24,993 bases of DNA from sequence record NZ_CP065281.1, one strand, 5' to 3'. The notes under the pieces are model-generated. The model ran no database searches. It was not told where the DNA came from and was given only the letters and a program-made list of their open reading frames with translations. The translations under genes were made by a program, and so were the position numbers. This DNA comes from a plasmid. Positions 5,706-24,993 of this stretch are shown one piece after another. How positions within the stretch are numbered: the stretch's first letter is position 1; each line of letters opens with the position of its first letter.

Positions 5706-6803
5706 GTGCCCACAGCAGAGGAATGGCGGTCATTGGCCGCTACCGGCATCGTCGAACTCTTGGAGACTGAGGGGGCGGCCACTCAGCCGGGTATGGAGGC
5801 CAAGCTGGCGGACGCGAAGTACGCCAAGTTTGACAGTCCAATTCATCCTCATCACCTGACGACTGCGCGCAACCGATTGCTTGATGCCGGGGTGATCGAG
5901 CGCATCAACGAACGGACGCGAGGTGGTCAGATAGTGGCCACTTTTGTCTTGGCGGATCCGTCGAAGGCGGTCTTGCGGATTGCTGGCCGGAAGCGTCTTC
6001 TGCACCGTCGCTATCTGAGCTGGAGTAGTGCCGCTGCGACTGAATGGGGTGCGCCACCCATTCCGGCGGCGCTGGAGCGGGTTATTCATCGCTCGCTGTT
6101 GGAGGCGGCGCCCCGCGGTTATCACCTTCTGCGCCCTGATGGAGGGGAAGTGGGGCAGATAGCAGGGAGGCCGGTCCCTGGTGGAAGCCTGGACAACGCG
6201 GCCTTTCACACCGGGGTGGGGGTCGATGGTTTGCCGGGCACCACAAAGCTGATGCCCATCGAGGCGAAGAACGTGCGCCAGTGGATTTACCCGCGAACGC
6301 AAGAGCTGTATCAGCTTCTTGATAAGTCTGCACGCCTGCGCGTGGCGAATCCGGACCTTCCAGTAATGCCCATCTTCGTGTGTCGGCGGGTGCAATTCTT
6401 AACGGGAAAGATGGCTCAGCAGTTGGGTTTTCACGTTATCCAAACGTGGCGGCAGTACGTCAGGCCGGCAGTCGCCCACACTGATGAGGATGCGCGGAAG
6501 TTCGAGGAACTTAACACCGAACTGTCGTACAACCTTGAACTTCATGAAGACAGTGTCGAGCCGATGGTCAAGCAGTTCACGGGAGTCATCCCGAAGCGTT
6601 GTGACGATGCGGCCGCGCGGTGGGGGCTCTTTGTTGCCCATCCTGATGTCCCAGATTTGGTCCATCGCATGCGCGATGACGGGATCAGCAATGACGAGCG
6701 TTATGACACGCTTGGTGAGCTCGCGGCGGCGGCGCGGGAGGTGTTCAGCGAGGACGTTGACTGGTTCCACGACGATGACCATGGAGAGCATCCTGACATC
6801 TGA
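5706..6803 (+). CDS. hypothetical protein with N-terminal wHTH-like region and a restriction-endonuclease-like (Mrr_cat / PD-(D/E)xK-type) motif
   Basis: GTG 5706 is preceded by AGGAG (5692-5696). The motif GVGVDGLPGTTKLMPIEAKNVRQW has the D...ExK arrangement of Mrr-like nucleases. The N-terminus HLTTARNRLLDAGVIERIN is wHTH-like. GC content is lower than in the flanking DNA. Confidence 0.6.
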   Translation: MPTAEEWRSLAATGIVELLETEGAATQPGMEAKLADAKYAKFDSPIHPHHLTTARNRLLDAGVIERINERTRGGQIVATFVLADPSKAVLRIAGRKRLLHRRYLSWSSAAATEWGAPPIPAALERVIHRSLLEAAPRGYHLLRPDGGEVGQIAGRPVPGGSLDNAAFHTGVGVDGLPGTTKLMPIEAKNVRQWIYPRTQELYQLLDKSARLRVANPDLPVMPIFVCRRVQFLTGKMAQQLGFHVIQTWRQYVRPAVAHTDEDARKFEELNTELSYNLELHEDSVEPMVKQFTGVIPKRCDDAAARWGLFVAHPDVPDLVHRMRDDGISNDERYDTLGELAAAAREVFSEDVDWFHDDDHGEHPDI

Positions 6804-14063: not shown

Positions 14064-14332
14064 GGGGACGGAAAAGCCAACCCGGCGAATAAGGGGTCGA
14101 GTTGGCCGCGAGACTCGAAGGTGACCGTCGAGCACGGCATCAGCGCCAGTGCGGCAGACGAAACTGCATGCACTTGCGAACCCCGTGACCGGAAGGCTGG
14201 CCACGGTCTCGATGAGTTCGGTACGGCGCTCGGCGCTGCTGCCGTGCCAGTGCAGCTTCGCTTCCCCGATCCGCAGACCGTGGAGTGTCTTGACGCGCGG
14301 TCGTGCTTCACGTGTGCCGGTTCTGACCGCTA

Positions 14333-19902: not shown

Positions 19903-20673
19903 GTGGTAGAGACCCCCCAGCAGGCAGAGGTGCGTCGCGCCGCTGCGCTCGATCGAGCCATATCGACCCCGCGCTACGCGTCCTATCTGAACGCCGCCGG
20001 CCAAGACGCCGACCGTGCCCGCAAGCTCTACGTCTGGGACCGTGACCTTTCGACAGCCATTCTCGCGGACCTGGCCATCGTCGAAGTGGCGTTACGCAAC
20101 GCCCTACACAACGCGCTGACCGGCACCTACGGACCTGAGTGGTACCAGAACATCGCCCTCGATGACCGCTCGATGAAGCAGGTCGAACGAGCCTGGGGCT
20201 ATCTCCGCAATCCTCGGCAAGGCCACCCATCGACACCTGGGCGAGTGATCGCGCAGTGCACCTTCGGAATGTGGGTCAACCTTCTCGATGCCGGCGGCTA
20301 CGCCGGCCGGGAGCCCCGCCGCGTCCACGCCGACTACGAGCAGCTGTGGCGATCGACGCTGCGCTCTGCATTCCCCGGTGGGCGCATCGAAGCACGAAAC
20401 GACCCAAGCCCCCACGCGAGCTTCACCAGGACGTGGGTTCACTCCGTCGCCAAGACCGTCAACGTTCTACGCAACCGGGTCGCCCACCACGAACCCCTGC
20501 ACAACGGATTCCCGTTGCCTGGCCAGCGGTCGGGTCAACAGCAGCCGAACCGCCTCACCGCCGCCGAGGGCGTCGAGGCCTACATGAAGCTCACCCGCAT
20601 GATCGACCGCAACCTCGCAGAGTGGATCGCCAACAACACCAAGGTCACGACCCTGCTGGCCACACGTCCATGA
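19903..20673 (+). CDS. Abi_2 family (AbiD/AbiF-like) abortive infection protein, HEPN-type
   Basis: GTG 19903 after AAGGAG. The protein has ISTPRYASYL ... LYVWDRDLSTAILADLAIVEVALRNALHNAL (the Abi_2 signature) and a C-terminal NVLRNRVAHHEP (Rx4H). Confidence 0.75.
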   Translation: MVETPQQAEVRRAAALDRAISTPRYASYLNAAGQDADRARKLYVWDRDLSTAILADLAIVEVALRNALHNALTGTYGPEWYQNIALDDRSMKQVERAWGYLRNPRQGHPSTPGRVIAQCTFGMWVNLLDAGGYAGREPRRVHADYEQLWRSTLRSAFPGGRIEARNDPSPHASFTRTWVHSVAKTVNVLRNRVAHHEPLHNGFPLPGQRSGQQQPNRLTAAEGVEAYMKLTRMIDRNLAEWIANNTKVTTLLATRP

Positions 20674-20710
20674 GCCTCGCTGGCAATACCGCCGGAGGGG
20701 CCGAGACCAC

Positions 20711-20770
20711 TGTACATACATACATGATTTCTTACATGTAAGTCTGCATGTAGACATGTTTGCATGTAGC
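20711..20770. promoter_or_regulatory. iterated TACATGTA/TGCATGTA motifs: candidate par operator/centromere (parS-like)
   Basis: TGTACATA, TACATGA, TACATGTA (perfect palindrome), TGCATGTA x2 and ACATGTT, all within 60 bp immediately upstream of parA. Confidence 0.45.
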
Positions 20771-20787
20771 CCGGTAAGCTTCCCGTC

Positions 20788-21594
20788 ATGACTGTTTCGG
20801 CAGATAAGCAGTGCGAAATCCTGGCCGTGGCGCTGCAGAAGGGCGGCGTCGGCAAGACAACCACCACGATCAACCTCGGCGCGAACCTGGCCGCGATGGG
20901 TCTACGCGTCCTCGTAATCGACATGGATCAGCAGGCGCACAGCACCAAGGGGCTGGGCATCGAACTCGACGCCGAGGACGCGTCCATGTACGAGGTTCTG
21001 CACCCGGACCGGGCGACGCGCGTCCCGTTGGCCAAGGTCATCGTTCCGACGCAGTTCGGCATCGACGTCGCGCCCGGTCATCTCGCGCTCAAGGAGCTCG
21101 AGCGAACCGGGCTCGGATCGGGAGGCCAGCTGCGGCTAGCGCGCCAGCTCGACGACATCGAGGGCTACGACTTCGTGCTCCTGGATTGCCCGCCGGCATT
21201 GGGGGAGCTGACCACCGCAGCACTCGCGGCGGCCGACTACGTGCTGGCCGTCCTCAAGGCCGGCCCCGACGAGGTGGACGGCCTGGTGGAGCTGGGCAAC
21301 TCGATCCTCGACGTTCAGGAGACCCTCAACCCCGACGTGGAAATCCGGTACGTGCTGCTGGCCGACTTCGACGGCAACCCGAAGGCGAGCAAGGACGTGC
21401 GCAGACAACTGCGTGCCGACTGGGGGGAGTGGTCTGACGGCGGGGCCTACCTGGGCGAGATCCCGCACACGGTGCGGGTGGTGGAAGCCAAGGGCAAACG
21501 CGTACCGGTCAACGTGCACGCCCCGACCAGCACGGCGGCGGTGGCCTACCGCGAGGTCGCCGAACGCATCGCGGCAAGGCGGCACGCAGCATGA
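20788..21594 (+). CDS. parA: ParA/Soj-family partition ATPase
   Basis: Deviant Walker A KGGVGKTTTTINLG, with ParA-like length and layout. Confidence 0.9.
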   Translation: MTVSADKQCEILAVALQKGGVGKTTTTINLGANLAAMGLRVLVIDMDQQAHSTKGLGIELDAEDASMYEVLHPDRATRVPLAKVIVPTQFGIDVAPGHLALKELERTGLGSGGQLRLARQLDDIEGYDFVLLDCPPALGELTTAALAAADYVLAVLKAGPDEVDGLVELGNSILDVQETLNPDVEIRYVLLADFDGNPKASKDVRRQLRADWGEWSDGGAYLGEIPHTVRVVEAKGKRVPVNVHAPTSTAAVAYREVAERIAARRHAA

Positions 21595-21998
21595 ACGCCG
21601 CATCGAAACCCGCCGGATTGCAGGTCGGCTCCACCCGTCCGCTGTCGCGGGCAGAGCGACGCGCCCAAGCCGCACGGGTCACCGCCGACGAAACCCCCGT
21701 CAACGAAACCGCGCCGGCCGCGCCGGAGCCGCAGAACCCCGGTATCCCGCCCGCGCCCGTGGTGGCATCACCCGGTGGTGAGCAGAAGACTCAGCCGGCC
21801 GAGCCGGTTCGGCTCAAAGCCCGTCAACGCAAGGTGAAGAGTCCGTTCGCCACACAGCTGCACGCGGGAACCCTCGCGCGGCTCGAATGGATCAAGGCGC
21901 ACGGATACGTCATCACCGACACCGTCGACGAGGCCATCAACCGCTACCTAGACGACGCCGGCATTCCAAAACCGGACCGCAACGACCGCATGCCCTGA
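21591..21998 (+). CDS. ParG-like ribbon-helix-helix centromere-binding protein (type Ib partition partner)
   Basis: ATGA overlap with parA. Disordered N-terminus plus C-terminal RHH-like KVKSPFATQLHAGTLARLEWIKAHGYVITDTVDEAINRYLDDAG. Confidence 0.6.
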   Translation: MNAASKPAGLQVGSTRPLSRAERRAQAARVTADETPVNETAPAAPEPQNPGIPPAPVVASPGGEQKTQPAEPVRLKARQRKVKSPFATQLHAGTLARLEWIKAHGYVITDTVDEAINRYLDDAGIPKPDRNDRMP

Positions 21999-22091
21999 GG
22001 GTGGCGCACGCCGCCCCCTAAGGGGCTGACGCAAAGTTGTCTTGATTCTCTCGTCGACGCTTCCAGTCATCCGCTGAGGCTCGCGCGCCGT

Positions 22092-22126
22092 GGAAGTGCT
22101 TCCAGCACTGCACTTCCTTTGTTGTG
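22092..22126 (+). terminator. rho-independent terminator downstream of par operon
   Basis: GGAAGTGC (22092-22099), 10-nt loop, GCACTTCC (22110-22117), then TTTGTTGTG. Confidence 0.5.
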
Positions 22127-22467
22127 ATCTGACCGTAACCACACGAGTTGTCGGGATTCCGGCCCCCAAGGGGTCATTAGAGGCCGTGACACCAACCCTG
22201 ACAACCCGCTTCTCGCGGTGCCGTGCATTCGGCGATCGGCCGCTGCACCCCGCAGGTCTATACCTGCTCAGGCGAGACCTGGAACTGCCGCCACGCCACG
22301 CGACGGAAACCAGCTCTCGGGCCGGTACTTCCCCGGTGTACCGGAACCACGACGAGAAAGGTGTGGCCAGTGCCCTGTAAAGCACGCTATGCCAGCGCAG
22401 AAGAAGAGAGCGGGACGACAGCCAGCTCCAGGAGCCATCTCCTGACCACCGAACAAGGAGACGCCCA

Positions 22468-22689
22468 ATGAGCGAATCCATCCTGATCGTCGTGGCCATC
22501 ATCGTCGTGGCGATCATCGTCCTGGCGATCACGGTCCTGGGCCTGGCGATCTGCGTGCTCGCGGGTTACCTGGCCCGCATTCCCGACTGCAAGGTCACCA
22601 TCGGCGAAGTCGGCCGAGCGATCGGCGCCATCGTCGGGGTGGGCTTCGAAGCGGTGGCCACGATCATCACGTCCGTGCGCCGACCGTGA
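22468..22689 (+). CDS. 73-aa hydrophobic membrane protein with internal 15-bp tandem repeats
   Basis: AAGGAG lies 7 nt before ATG 22468. Translation begins MSESILIVVAIIVVAIIVLAITVLGLAICVLAGYLARI; the DNA carries three or four tandem copies of ATCATCGTCGTGGCC-like 15-mers at 22486-22545. Confidence 0.55.
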   Translation: MSESILIVVAIIVVAIIVLAITVLGLAICVLAGYLARIPDCKVTIGEVGRAIGAIVGVGFEAVATIITSVRRP

Positions 22690-22887
22690 GAAACCCCGGC
22701 TCATGGGGGGCAGCGGACTTCCTCGGCCTCGATTGTGGCGAAACGGTGGGTGGTGGCCGTCAAGGCCGTACCGCCGCTGCGCGGTCGACCTACCGGTCGA
22801 GCCTGGACAGCCACCACCCACCGCGCAAACGGGCCAGTACGAGGAAGCTGCGGGCGAGAAACGCTGGCCAGGCTCCGGAATGCCGAG

Positions 22888-23115
22888 CTACTCGGCCGGG
22901 GGCACCCCGGCCCGGTCCAAGAACTCGTTGAGCGCCGCATCCACGATGTCGGTGACCGCGTACCCGCGGTCCTTCAACACCTCCACGCGCTGCTGCGTGC
23001 CCGGACGCACATAGGTGTTCAACGGCACCTTCTGCTGCCGCTTACGCAAGGGCAGCGCGCTACCGGCAGCGTCGGCCGCGCCGCCGTCGAGAGCATCCCC
23101 AGCCGAATCGGGCAT
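22888..23115 (-). CDS. small RHH DNA-binding protein, paralog of the ParG-like C-terminal domain
   Basis: KRQQKVPLNTYVRPGTQQRVEVLKDRGYAVTDIVDAALNEFLDRAGVP aligns by eye with the ParG-like protein RQRKVKSPFATQLHAGTLARLEWIKAHGYVITDTVDEAINRYLDDAGIP. Confidence 0.55.
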   Translation of the reverse strand: MPDSAGDALDGGAADAAGSALPLRKRQQKVPLNTYVRPGTQQRVEVLKDRGYAVTDIVDAALNEFLDRAGVPPAE

Positions 23116-23176
23116 GCACGCATCCTACATGCATACCTAAAAGTAGTTTGCATGCAAATTGCTTGCATGTATGCAC
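23112..23176. promoter_or_regulatory. second cluster of TGCATG-type motifs in divergent promoter region
   Basis: GCATGCA, TACATGCATA, TTTGCATGCAAA (perfect 12-bp palindrome, 23148-23159) and TTGCATGTATGCA, located between the RHH paralog (minus) and the 23198 gene (plus). Confidence 0.4.
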
Positions 23177-23197
23177 GCACGCTCTTACAGTGAGGGC

Positions 23198-23488
23198 ATG
23201 GAAATCCTCGGCACGGTCCAAGACGACGTGAGTGCGGTCCGGGACTTCGCGTCCCAGGTCCGTGCGCTGTGTGCGCAGCTGACAGCCAATCCGTTCAACA
23301 CCCCCGCCGCAGAGAAGCTCCTCGATCTGCTCCTGGAGGACGCCCCGGCAGTGGATCTCGCCTTCGAACGAGTGTTGCGGTCGGTGATCCACGGACCCGC
23401 ATCGACCGGCGCCCCGATCCTGGACATGCTCGGCGGCCCACGCTGCACCGACCCGAATGCCGCACTCGTCGTCGGCGCGGCGGCCTAA
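23198..23488 (+). CDS. hypothetical protein
   Basis: ORF with high GC3 (MEILGTVQDDVSAVRDF...). Start uncertain; an in-frame ATG at 23159 lies within the motif cluster. Confidence 0.45.
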   Translation: MEILGTVQDDVSAVRDFASQVRALCAQLTANPFNTPAAEKLLDLLLEDAPAVDLAFERVLRSVIHGPASTGAPILDMLGGPRCTDPNAALVVGAAA

Positions 23489-23499
23489 AGTCGGCCCTG

Positions 23500-23820
23500 A
23501 TGAGCGCACCCGCACCGCCGCCGAAGCCAGGCTCCACCGAGCACTGGCAGGCATGGCTGCAGCGGTACGGCGGTGACTACACCGATGACGCCGAGCGCCG
23601 CGCCGCCTACCAGGACTTCACGACGAACCTCGACACCATCCAAGCCGTCTTCTCCCAATCCGATGACATGCACGTCGCCGGCTACCTCGAAGCCCACGAA
23701 CGGGTGGCCAGCGGCGACGCAGACAGCCCCGACGACGCCGAGACATGGGTTCCAGGCGATCTCACCGGCCACGCGCGGGCGGACTGGCTCGAAGGCTTCC
23801 GCTCCCACTTCGAGCCGTAG
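23500..23820 (+). CDS. hypothetical protein
   Basis: ATG 23500 (MSAPAPPPKPGSTEHWQAWLQRYGGDY...) follows the stop of the previous gene. High GC3. Confidence 0.5.
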   Translation: MSAPAPPPKPGSTEHWQAWLQRYGGDYTDDAERRAAYQDFTTNLDTIQAVFSQSDDMHVAGYLEAHERVASGDADSPDDAETWVPGDLTGHARADWLEGFRSHFEP

Positions 23821-23917
23821 GCCCAGCCCTGGGGAGGAAGCGGTCGGAATCGTGACACCACGCTTTCCGGCCCGCACCCTACGACCTCGCCGTGTGCACT
23901 CCTGCACGTCCGAGACC

Positions 23918-24241
23918 ATGCCGCCACCCGTCGATCCCGCAATTCAGCGCACTGTCCAGGCGGTCTACACCACAGACCTCGGGCTACCCGAGGACTGGAC
24001 CACCGACCAGCGGACCGAGTTCATCCGCGACGAGGCCGACCGAATCACTTGGATGGCCCGTGCCCACGCCGCCACTCTCGGCGACCTGAGCATCCGCGAC
24101 TGGACTTGCCGACACCACGGCCAGATGCCAGACCCACTGACGCAGACTGCATTACGCACCGAGGCCCGCGCCCAAGCCGTGCGCCAGGTCCTCAGCACGG
24201 AACTGTACGAACTCATCCCCACCGAGGTCGACGACTGGTGA
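23918..24241 (+). CDS. hypothetical protein
   Basis: Internal ATG of the track ORF (MPPPVDPAIQRTVQAVYTTDLGLPEDW...) with high GC3. The upstream part of the track ORF is low-complexity. Confidence 0.5.
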   Translation: MPPPVDPAIQRTVQAVYTTDLGLPEDWTTDQRTEFIRDEADRITWMARAHAATLGDLSIRDWTCRHHGQMPDPLTQTALRTEARAQAVRQVLSTELYELIPTEVDDW

Positions 24242-24348
24242 TCGCGCACCACGCGTTATCTGGAACGGACCTCAAAATTCACACCAGTACCACCCGCCTC
24301 GGCGTGTCCTGATGCTGAATCACCGATCGGGCTGGAAGGGTCAACGTC

Positions 24349-24558
24349 ATGCCAGCTCACGCAAAAGGCGAACGCAAGGCATACACCGTTCGCCCACCCA
24401 TCGAAGCCGTTCCGCTCCTAGAGGAGAAGTTCGCGCAGTCGGGCGTTTCGTCCATGGCGCAGTACATGGCGGACCTTCTCGCCATCCACGCCGGCCGACC
24501 AGACCTGGTGCGTGAACTCGGAAAAGTCGACAAGGAGGTTCTGCCGCTGGCGATGTGA
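24349..24558 (+). CDS. small RHH-like (CopG/Arc-type) DNA-binding protein
   Basis: GGAAGGG lies 7 nt before the ATG. KAYTVRPPIEAVPLLEEKFAQSGVSSMAQYMADLLAIHAG fits a beta-strand/helix/helix pattern. Confidence 0.5.
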   Translation: MPAHAKGERKAYTVRPPIEAVPLLEEKFAQSGVSSMAQYMADLLAIHAGRPDLVRELGKVDKEVLPLAM

Positions 24559-24993
24559 TCACCCCGCCAGGACCTAAAAACCTCTGCTGGTCGGACAGGG
24601 GTCTTGGCATACGTGACATCTGAATAGCCGGTGTGCGGATTACCCCGCTGACATGACGAAGGCCCCGCGTTAGCGAGGCCCTTGTCTGAGGTTTTGAACC
24701 GAGCGCCAACTCGGTTCGGGGTCCGCACCCGATATCCCCGAAGGGACTTTGCTCTGAAAGGCAAGTCTCACGGTAGCGCACGCCTGTCCGGCGTACCAGA
24801 TACGCCGCGCATCCAGTGTGCGAATCGTGACCTCATCAGCGCCCGATCACATCGGGCGAGCAGTACGCGGCCGACACCGCTCGGCGCGGCTGTAGCTCCT
24901 GCTGCTCCCAACCCCCATGTGGCTCGTGCGCACGCCAATGAGCGTCGTCGTGACTGGGTGACGCGTGCCGGCTCCTGCGCACCGTCTGCGCCG

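Follow-up and report, generated by a model that had tools for sequence, protein, structure and literature searches.

The window analysed here is the whole 24,993-nucleotide stretch of plasmid DNA from sequence record NZ_CP065281.1, and our subject is two clusters of short palindromic boxes within it, cluster A upstream of the partition gene parA and, 2.3 kb away, cluster B in front of the small gene rhh2, together with the two adjoining genes, which encode related ribbon-helix-helix (RHH) proteins. We consider it probable that these elements form two independent, autoregulated modules whose DNA readers share ancestry, and not one split system. The first module would be a partition operon encoding a ParA ATPase and a ParG-like adaptor (ParG1), with cluster A as its site. 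The second would be a regulatory switch of the plasmid backbone, in which RHH2, a tail-less relative of a different adaptor subclade, binds cluster B. The likeness of the boxes in the two clusters would then reflect the homology of the two RHH domains. The features concerned are as follows (positions in the window; aa, amino acids).

20713–20768, no strand: cluster A, 14 in-phase tetramers with five 8-bp boxes; proposed centromere and operator
20775–20780, plus strand: predicted -10 hexamer TAAGCT of parA, six bases past the last box and 7 nt before the parA ATG
20788–21594, plus strand: parA, a 268-aa Walker-type ParA (KGGVGKT) without an N-terminal DNA-binding domain, of type Ib size
21591–21998, plus strand: gene for the ParG-like adaptor (ParG1, 135 aa), with N-terminal motif, linker, and C-terminal RHH domain
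22888–23115, minus strand: rhh2, a 75-aa stand-alone RHH protein (strand KVPLNTYV); proposed autorepressor and repressor of the divergent operon
23115–23179, no strand: cluster B, five boxes in the gap between rhh2 and g96; proposed operator of both divergent promoters
23122–23127, minus strand: predicted -10 hexamer TAGGAT of rhh2, 6 nt before the ATG and overlapped by the box at 23126
23186–23191, plus strand: predicted -10 hexamer TACAGT of the g96 operon, 6 nt before the ATG
23198–23488, plus strand: g96, 96 aa, predicted to form a helical hairpin; opens the operon that faces rhh2
23500–23820, plus strand: g106, a conserved hypothetical protein of 106 aa, second gene of the operon
23918–24241, plus strand: g107, a conserved hypothetical protein of 107 aa, third gene; plus strand favoured over an overlapping minus-strand open reading frame (ORF)

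One box family beside two related RHH genes

The octamer TRCATGYA has seven matches in the 24,993 bp of the window against 0.69 expected, a count that none of 100 shuffles reached, and six of the seven lie within the clusters (20733, 20745, and 20761 in cluster A; 23126, 23149, and 23164 in cluster B). Since both clusters lie in AT-rich intergenic islands, each was also shuffled alone with its dinucleotides preserved; 0.04 (A) and 0.12 (B) boxes are then expected against three observed in each (P < 5e-5 and 1.5e-4, respectively). Seven other AT-rich islands of the window hold no TRCATGYA. When the core was relaxed (CGTG or CACG also allowed), only two more sites appeared window-wide, at 23115 and 23172, both in cluster B, and the palindrome TTTGCATGCAAA was located at 23147–23158. 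An earlier note on this DNA, made from the letters alone, had described one repeat family at both places. That description stands, the enrichment holding within the window and also against its other AT-rich islands, and the clusters themselves are retained, with limits redrawn from 20711–20770 to 20713–20768 and from 23112–23176 to 23115–23179. The sole match outside both clusters, a lone TGCATGCA at 14165–14172 in the gap that separates the TetR gene from the ORF after it, was weighed as a possible third site and rejected, as a single box is consistent with the chance expectation.

The two adjacent proteins are paralogous, as had been proposed: ParG1 and RHH2 are identical at 23 of 49 positions (47%; E = 5e-15). 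A scan of 1.84 billion representative proteins returned only 84 related clusters, and a 59-sequence alignment of these (A2) was profile-searched against the PDB sequences, where its top three matches are all RHH proteins: SvtR (2KEL, 7.4e-5), ORF56 of pRN1 (2K9I, 0.0021), and a CopG-family protein (9KKD, 0.012). A narrower profile (A1) gave weak RHH matches together with the spurious repeat protein BurrH, which was resolved by widening to A2. By hhalign, A2 matched ParG (1P94) at E = 1.3e-4, with LNTYV of RHH2 aligned with VNVNF of the ParG strand, and A1 matched omega (1IRQ) in register at E = 0.0033; the match to CopG was weak (E = 0.36), and that to Arc lay elsewhere in the protein. No Pfam model, that of ParG included, matched either protein or any of 20 family members at E ≤ 10; they are not members of the Pfam ParG family in the strict sense, the similarity being a remote one between profiles only. 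On the strength of the family profiles we accept both as predicted RHH proteins, which agrees with the label they had been given.

Across the family, the ribbon strand follows the pattern hydrophobic, variable, T, variable, hydrophobic. Both variable residues probably face the DNA, because they align with the polar, alternating positions of the ParG strand. In RHH2, the RHH domain (approximately residues 29–72 of 75) makes up nearly the whole protein, and the AlphaFold monomer model has an extended N-terminus followed by helices at 38–49 and 56–69 (pLDDT 64). One 219-aa representative of the family (P0045) has two separate RHH-family profile matches and may be a tandem-duplicated, single-chain RHH protein.

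A probable partition operon and a proposed divergent switch

Cluster A runs in one 4-bp register as the tetramers TACA TACA TACA TGAT TTCT TACA TGTA AGTC TGCA TGTA GACA TGTT TGCA TGTA. Its five boxes start at 20721, 20733, 20745, 20753, and 20761 (spacings of 12, 12, 8, and 8), and in the sister plasmids compared this five-box layout upstream of parA is largely kept, with some outer boxes degenerate. In all orthologous loci, a TANNNT hexamer stands at a fixed distance upstream of parA, with variable neighboring bases. Mycobacterial promoters have TANNNT as their -10 element, and leaderless mRNAs are frequent. From the conserved hexamer and this general pattern we infer that the parA transcript is leaderless and that its -35 region and spacer lie under the last two boxes, which cover about -35 to -20 of the predicted promoter.

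The parA product matches Pfam AAA_31 (1e-39) and CbiA (1e-21), with the NCBIfam partition ATPase models below their curated cut-offs. The start of parG1 overlaps the parA stop (ATGA, 21591–21594), an arrangement found in all orthologous loci, and in ParG1 a Pro/Ala-rich linker joins an N-terminal motif (GLQVGSTRPLSRAERR) to a C-terminal RHH domain, whose strand is KSPFATQL. A small ParA, an adjoining adaptor gene in the same operon, an RHH domain, and an enriched, conserved five-box array are thus present; every type Ib feature that can be judged from sequence appears to be there, and cluster A most likely serves a type Ib ParA/RHH partition operon as its centromere and operator. In such an operon, dimers of the adaptor would bind the array at 20713–20768, which would overlap the -35 region and spacer of the leaderless parA promoter and so act both as plasmid centromere and as autorepression operator, and the disordered N-terminal tail of the adaptor (STRPLSRAERR) would stimulate ParA.

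In known type Ib systems, centromere/operator repeats lie upstream of parA and the RHH adaptor carries a flexible tail (PMC3074162; PMC7308502). The present module resembles parFGH of TP228, where a small ParA-type ATPase likewise precedes a small adaptor whose N-terminal tail is disordered and whose C-terminal domain is an RHH, and where an upstream array of short, degenerate, in-phase boxes with tetramer periodicity acts as centromere and operator (PMC7308502), as is proposed here. It differs from TP228 in its 8-bp palindromes (TRCATGYA, as opposed to ACTC tetramers with AT spacers), in its 135-aa adaptor with a long Pro/Ala linker, and in its Mycobacteriales host; moreover, a further, tail-less paralog with an operator to itself is absent from TP228. 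The characterised actinobacterial type Ib case, ParA/ParB of pCXC100 from Leifsonia xyli, also has an adaptor (∼139 aa), itself undetectable by sequence motifs, with a long flexible N-terminal region and a C-terminal RHH domain, and a ∼90-bp centromere directly upstream of parA in which dimers bind abutting short repeats cooperatively (PMC3074162). Its centromere, however, consists of nine direct 9-bp units (AGNTGGAAA) and not of palindromic 8-mers, and profile searches of the PDB found no detectable sequence similarity to it at E ≤ 10. The assignment would define a probable centromere and operator for a plasmid family that extends across Mycobacterium, Mycobacteroides, and Mycolicibacterium (pMM23 and the ATCC 19977 plasmid among them), and its partition adaptor belongs to a small RHH family, of about 84 clusters, for which Pfam has no model.

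Cluster B fills the 82-bp gap between the divergent starts of rhh2 (23115, minus strand) and g96 (23198, plus strand). Its boxes are TGCACGCA at 23115, TACATGCA at 23126, TGCATGCA at 23149, TGCATGTA at 23164, and TGCACGCA again at 23172, a layout kept in 17 distinct orthologous regions and in a 71%-identical ortholog from M. septicum; across the same number of distinct orthologous regions, both predicted -10 hexamers are conserved as TANNNT. The boxes at 23164 and 23172 abut at about -34 to -19 of the g96 start, in the same geometry as at parA, and at rhh2 the start codon and the predicted -10 element of the putative promoter lie under the boxes at 23115 and 23126. Cluster B is most likely the operator of RHH2 itself, at which the protein would repress its own gene, from a leaderless promoter, as well as the divergent g96-g106-g107 operon, whose genes run towards the CopG-like gene and rep. 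With MetJ, CopG, and Arc, RHH2 would share the binding of small RHH dimers to short palindromic boxes overlapping their own promoters, although its nearest relatives are partition adaptors, not classical repressors, and it matches no Pfam RHH model. The metbox arrangement of MetJ is one of abutting 8-bp boxes.

Codon-position GC supports g96, g106, and g107 all as plus-strand genes, and the GC content at third codon positions (GC3) of rhh2 is 0.87. For g107, the GC content at the first, second, and third positions is 0.69, 0.50, and 0.80, vs. 0.52, 0.65, and 0.82 for the overlapping minus-strand ORF, and plus-strand homologs that are 72–97% identical occur in sister plasmids. A Foldseek search with the helical-hairpin model of g96 gave only non-specific matches. 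The slot after g106 (23918–24241 in the window, 6420–6803 in locus L001, and 482–865 in locus L005) holds alternative genes: the window and many sister plasmids have the plus-strand 107-aa gene there, and pMM23 and pGD25-3 have a different, 127-aa gene with the opposite strand annotated.

Separate inheritance of the modules and the competing readings

Modules were mapped by tblastn over 48 loci (numbered L001 onwards). A conserved backbone comprises RHH2, cluster B, g96, g106, (g107), the CopG-like gene, and rep, and beside it stands one of two cassettes. The first, ParA1/ParG1 with cluster A, is found in the window, pMM23, L020–L024, L029, L039/40, and L046. The second, ParA2, consists of an unrelated 240-aa ParA and a 142-aa adaptor, and lies beside the RHH2 module in 16 of the fetched loci (L003–L006, L019, L030–32, L034, L035, L037, L038, L041, L042, and L048). 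No ParG1-type gene was found in the ParA2-cassette loci, and the ParA2 plasmids for which the full record was searched (e.g., djl-10_3 and the M. aubagnense plasmid) contain a single gene of the RHH family. Wherever the region is intact, the five boxes of cluster B are still there, and upstream of ParA2 there is a different repeat family (TAACGYT/TAAAAC type) and no box array. Plasmids of M. avium, M. paragordonae, SMC-8, and others carry ParA1/ParG1 with cluster A and no RHH2, and in front of parA these ParG-only plasmids have TACATGTA-type boxes with an unchanged layout.

Each box cluster thus accompanies its adjacent RHH gene independently of the other module, which is the main argument against both of the specific proposals of the earlier note. 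Its broader idea, that two sites are read by related RHH proteins, survives in the form of operator-like sites of one box family that adjoin related RHH genes, a pairing that persists in relatives with a single module. A split partition or incompatibility system finds no support, in view of the retention of RHH2 and cluster B beside an unrelated ParA cassette and of the different subclade, the missing adaptor motif, and the different box preference of RHH2; against control of the genes at 23198–24241 by the partition repressor speaks the persistence of cluster B and RHH2 in plasmids without a ParG1-type gene. In addition, two contigs of Mycobacterium sp. pW049 both carry an intact RHH2 with a five-box site, which argues weakly that cluster B is not a strong incompatibility determinant.

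The partition cassettes are swapped at one fixed position of the backbone (20674–21998 in the window; the ParA2 cassette occupies 6394–7850 in L003, 1712–3170 in L005, and 6442–7890 in L006), which bears on plasmid incompatibility and on stable mycobacterial vectors. The C-terminus of the ParA2 adaptor (KVSIYLDD...VVRLALNRLAEQL) also looks RHH-like; in djl-10 and M. aubagnense this adaptor is annotated as only 70 aa, with the 142-aa frame intact. A single conserved TGCATGCA (TGCACGCA in L004) lies ∼200 bp upstream of ParA2 (L003 7736, L005 3057, L006 7776), in the gap facing a divergent 183-aa gene, and could be an RHH2 site or a chance occurrence. The rhh2 module is dispensable, as it has decayed in several plasmids (L048 2380–2650, L041/L005, and L006 5986–6161) by frameshift, by an insertion in the strand (NIYVRPRPG), or by loss of the promoter and g96.

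Every family member in the fetched loci can be assigned to one of two groups. Group P (strand K[SNG]PF[AS]TQL) includes the ParG-like protein of the window, which always directly follows a ParA that is 70–99% identical to that of the window. Group N (strand KVP[FL]NTY[VIL]) contains the 75-aa RHH2 proteins and full-length proteins of 107–115 aa, the latter following a ParA 57% identical to that of the window (L010, L011, L016, L044, and L047). An N-terminal motif, GL..STRPx[ST]R[AE]ERR, is common to the long members of the two groups and missing from RHH2, and RHH2 is, by its predicted sequence relationships, a tail-less member of the sister subclade that did not arise by recent duplication of ParG1. 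ParG and omega use a flexible N-terminal tail to stimulate the ATPase (PMC7308502; PMC3074162); because the adaptor motif is absent, RHH2 looks like a pure DNA binder, which by analogy would be unable to drive ParA. A further stand-alone relative is an 88-aa protein of a Nocardia farcinica plasmid (L017 2456–2722), which belongs to the ParG1 subclade (strand KKQFGTQL) and whose gene is divergent from an operon of parA and a gene with a ParB N-terminal domain, in a neighborhood free of TRCATGYA boxes; this too is a derivative without the tail, here alongside a partition system of another type.

The residues at the predicted DNA-facing positions are A/Q in group P and N/Y in group N, and the box variants follow the same division. 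For CATG-centered boxes, we tallied the base at the inner position of each half-site (position 2 directly, position 7 as its complement), with A:G counts of 46:18 at group P sites, 31:54 at RHH2 sites, and 3:39 at the sites flanking full-length group N adaptors. ParG1-type sites are thus rich in TACATGTA and group N sites in TGCATGCA; in the group N par loci, TGCATGCA arrays precede parA and also follow immediately after the adaptor gene (e.g., TGCATGCA-agta-GGCATGCA-tata-TGCATGCA in L010). As a hypothesis, A/Q would pair with A:T, and N/Y with G:C, at the symmetric inner position of the box, a compact specificity rule in which two strand residues go with one symmetric base pair. Together with the TACATGTA-rich and TGCATGCA-rich boxes, these residues would partly insulate the two circuits from each other.

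That the circuits are not separate is the alternative with most left to it, and we judge it unlikely: ParG1 would also act on cluster B, as a second centromere or in control of g96, and/or RHH2 would act on cluster A and tune the par operon. The two clusters do belong to one 8-bp box family with hybrid boxes in common, an abutting box pair lies at about -35 to -20 of both the parA and the g96 promoter, and par loci with NTY-type (group N) adaptors have box arrays on both sides of the operon. There is also the precedent of pSM19035, whose delta/omega system uses an RHH adaptor that is also a repressor, with similar arrays before several maintenance promoters, so that a single RHH protein coordinates copy control, partition, and toxin-antitoxin promoters (PMC4627068; PMC3074150). 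There, however, one protein reads all sites, whereas here there are two paralogs of different subclades, each adjoining its own site, and the second module occurs without the first. A single global regulator of the omega type would not fit the two subclades or the persistence of cluster B without a ParG1-type gene, where the plasmid has another par cassette and RHH2 is unchanged. The layout of cluster B shows no systematic difference between ParG1 and ParA2 plasmids, and no ParG1-driven signature was seen in cluster B when plasmids with and without ParG1 were compared; the predicted DNA-facing residues differ, and box preference tracks the subclade. Limited cross-talk, by cross-binding at hybrid TGCATGTA or TACATGCA boxes, is possible.

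A more specific history, which we hold to be rather doubtful, is that RHH2 would be a domesticated, tail-less centromere binder derived from an NTY-type par locus, forming a specificity pair with ParG1 in which A/Q vs. N/Y switches between TACATGTA and TGCATGCA. If true, this pair would insulate the two circuits, or would let RHH2 silence or destabilise competitors with a TGCATGCA centromere. In a Mycolicibacterium sp. contig (L047 480–1902), a par operon opens with a g96-like gene (82 aa), followed by parA and the gene for an NTY-type adaptor, with TGCATGCA boxes before both the g96-like gene and parA; speculatively, the divergent rhh2/g96 pair descends from a group N par locus of this kind by loss of parA and truncation of the adaptor.

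Less credible still is an anti-partition or incompatibility role, in which RHH2 would coat the TGCATGCA centromeres of competitors with NTY-type systems without activating ParA, and cluster B would only autoregulate its dose. RHH2 has the strand residues of the full-length NTY-type adaptors, whose loci carry centromere-like TGCATGCA arrays, it lacks the adaptor motif, and both plasmid types occur in Mycolicibacterium and Mycobacterium; yet it is tightly coupled to a conserved divergent operon, which a simple repressor role explains, and the module decays by frameshift or promoter loss in L048, L041, L005, and L006. That the boxes are not RHH sites at all (chance AT-rich promoter features, generic promoter elements, or host-factor sites) is very improbable, since, for all that both clusters lie within AT-rich intergenic islands, the local shuffles give P ≤ 1.5e-4 for each cluster, the seven other such islands are boxless, the boxes track the RHH family across plasmids (with another repeat family upstream of the unrelated ParA2), and the box variant follows the protein subclade.

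Several results weigh against two autoregulated, insulated modules and temper our preference for them. Neither ParG1 nor RHH2 is matched by any Pfam, NCBIfam, or PHROG model, and g96, g106, g107, and the CopG-like protein have no informative match in Pfam, NCBIfam, or PHROGs. Fold searches with the RHH2 monomer model returned nothing, which is unsurprising because the ribbon forms only in the dimer. A sigma-70 consensus and terminator scan was uninformative and did not find the predicted promoters. The pooled association of strand residues with box variant (odds ratio 7; Fisher P = 4e-9) is only indicative, as it ignores the shared ancestry of the plasmids, and within the window alone the A:G counts of 5:2 and 2:4 do not differ significantly (P = 0.29). 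Hybrid boxes (TGCATGTA, TACATGCA) are present in both clusters, and insulation may be weak. The literature provided no binding, expression, or stability data for the pMM23 plasmid family. On balance, we retain the two independent modules, for which the mechanism is most likely ordinary: a standard type Ib partition operon and a standard small autorepressor with its own operator. Box enrichment, paralogy, RHH membership by profile, modular distribution, and the trend between strand residues and box variant are observed, whereas binding, repression, centromere function, and leaderless starts are inferred. What appears to be new is a previously undescribed small RHH family, a tail-less adaptor relative as a proposed regulator, and the candidate rule linking strand residues to a base pair.

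The plasmid and its other features

Both pMM23 of Mycobacterium marinum M and the 23-kb plasmid of Mycobacteroides abscessus ATCC 19977 share ∼93% identity with the region 20400–24600, and about 20 further mycobacterial plasmids match it more weakly; a phage collection searched with the region gave no match. A literature search found nothing specific on pMM23 partition, the box sequences, mycobacterial RHH adaptors, or the partition locus of this plasmid family. The window starts exactly at the ATG of rep and ends 435 bp past the CopG-like gene, and in pMM23 these two genes are the same distance apart across the origin of the circular record. Because this spacing matches the window ends, the window is most likely a complete circular plasmid of 24,993 bp of the pMM23 family. 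It also encodes a MobF/TrwC relaxase, a luciferase-like monooxygenase, and an MMPL transporter accompanied by a TetR regulator, and an Abi gene immediately precedes parA.

A stretch of 470 bp (21999–22467), which separates the adaptor gene from that of a predicted membrane protein of 73 aa and has no convincing ORF, is conserved in pMM23. It opens with the GC-rich hairpin GCCCCCTAAGGGGC and contains the direct repeats AGTTGTCTTGATTC and AGTTGTCGGGATTC, 111 bp apart; an Rfam scan of 20000–24993, which includes this stretch, found nothing. In the region that spans 24349–24993 and 1–1089 of the window, the 69-aa CopG-like protein is a third small protein, encoded 435 bp upstream of rep across the circular junction, and its homologues are annotated as CopG/RHH or toxin-antitoxin proteins in relatives. 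The gap between its gene and rep contains several inverted and direct repeats (e.g., 24551–24560 with 24845–24854; 24702–24755) and may hold the origin.

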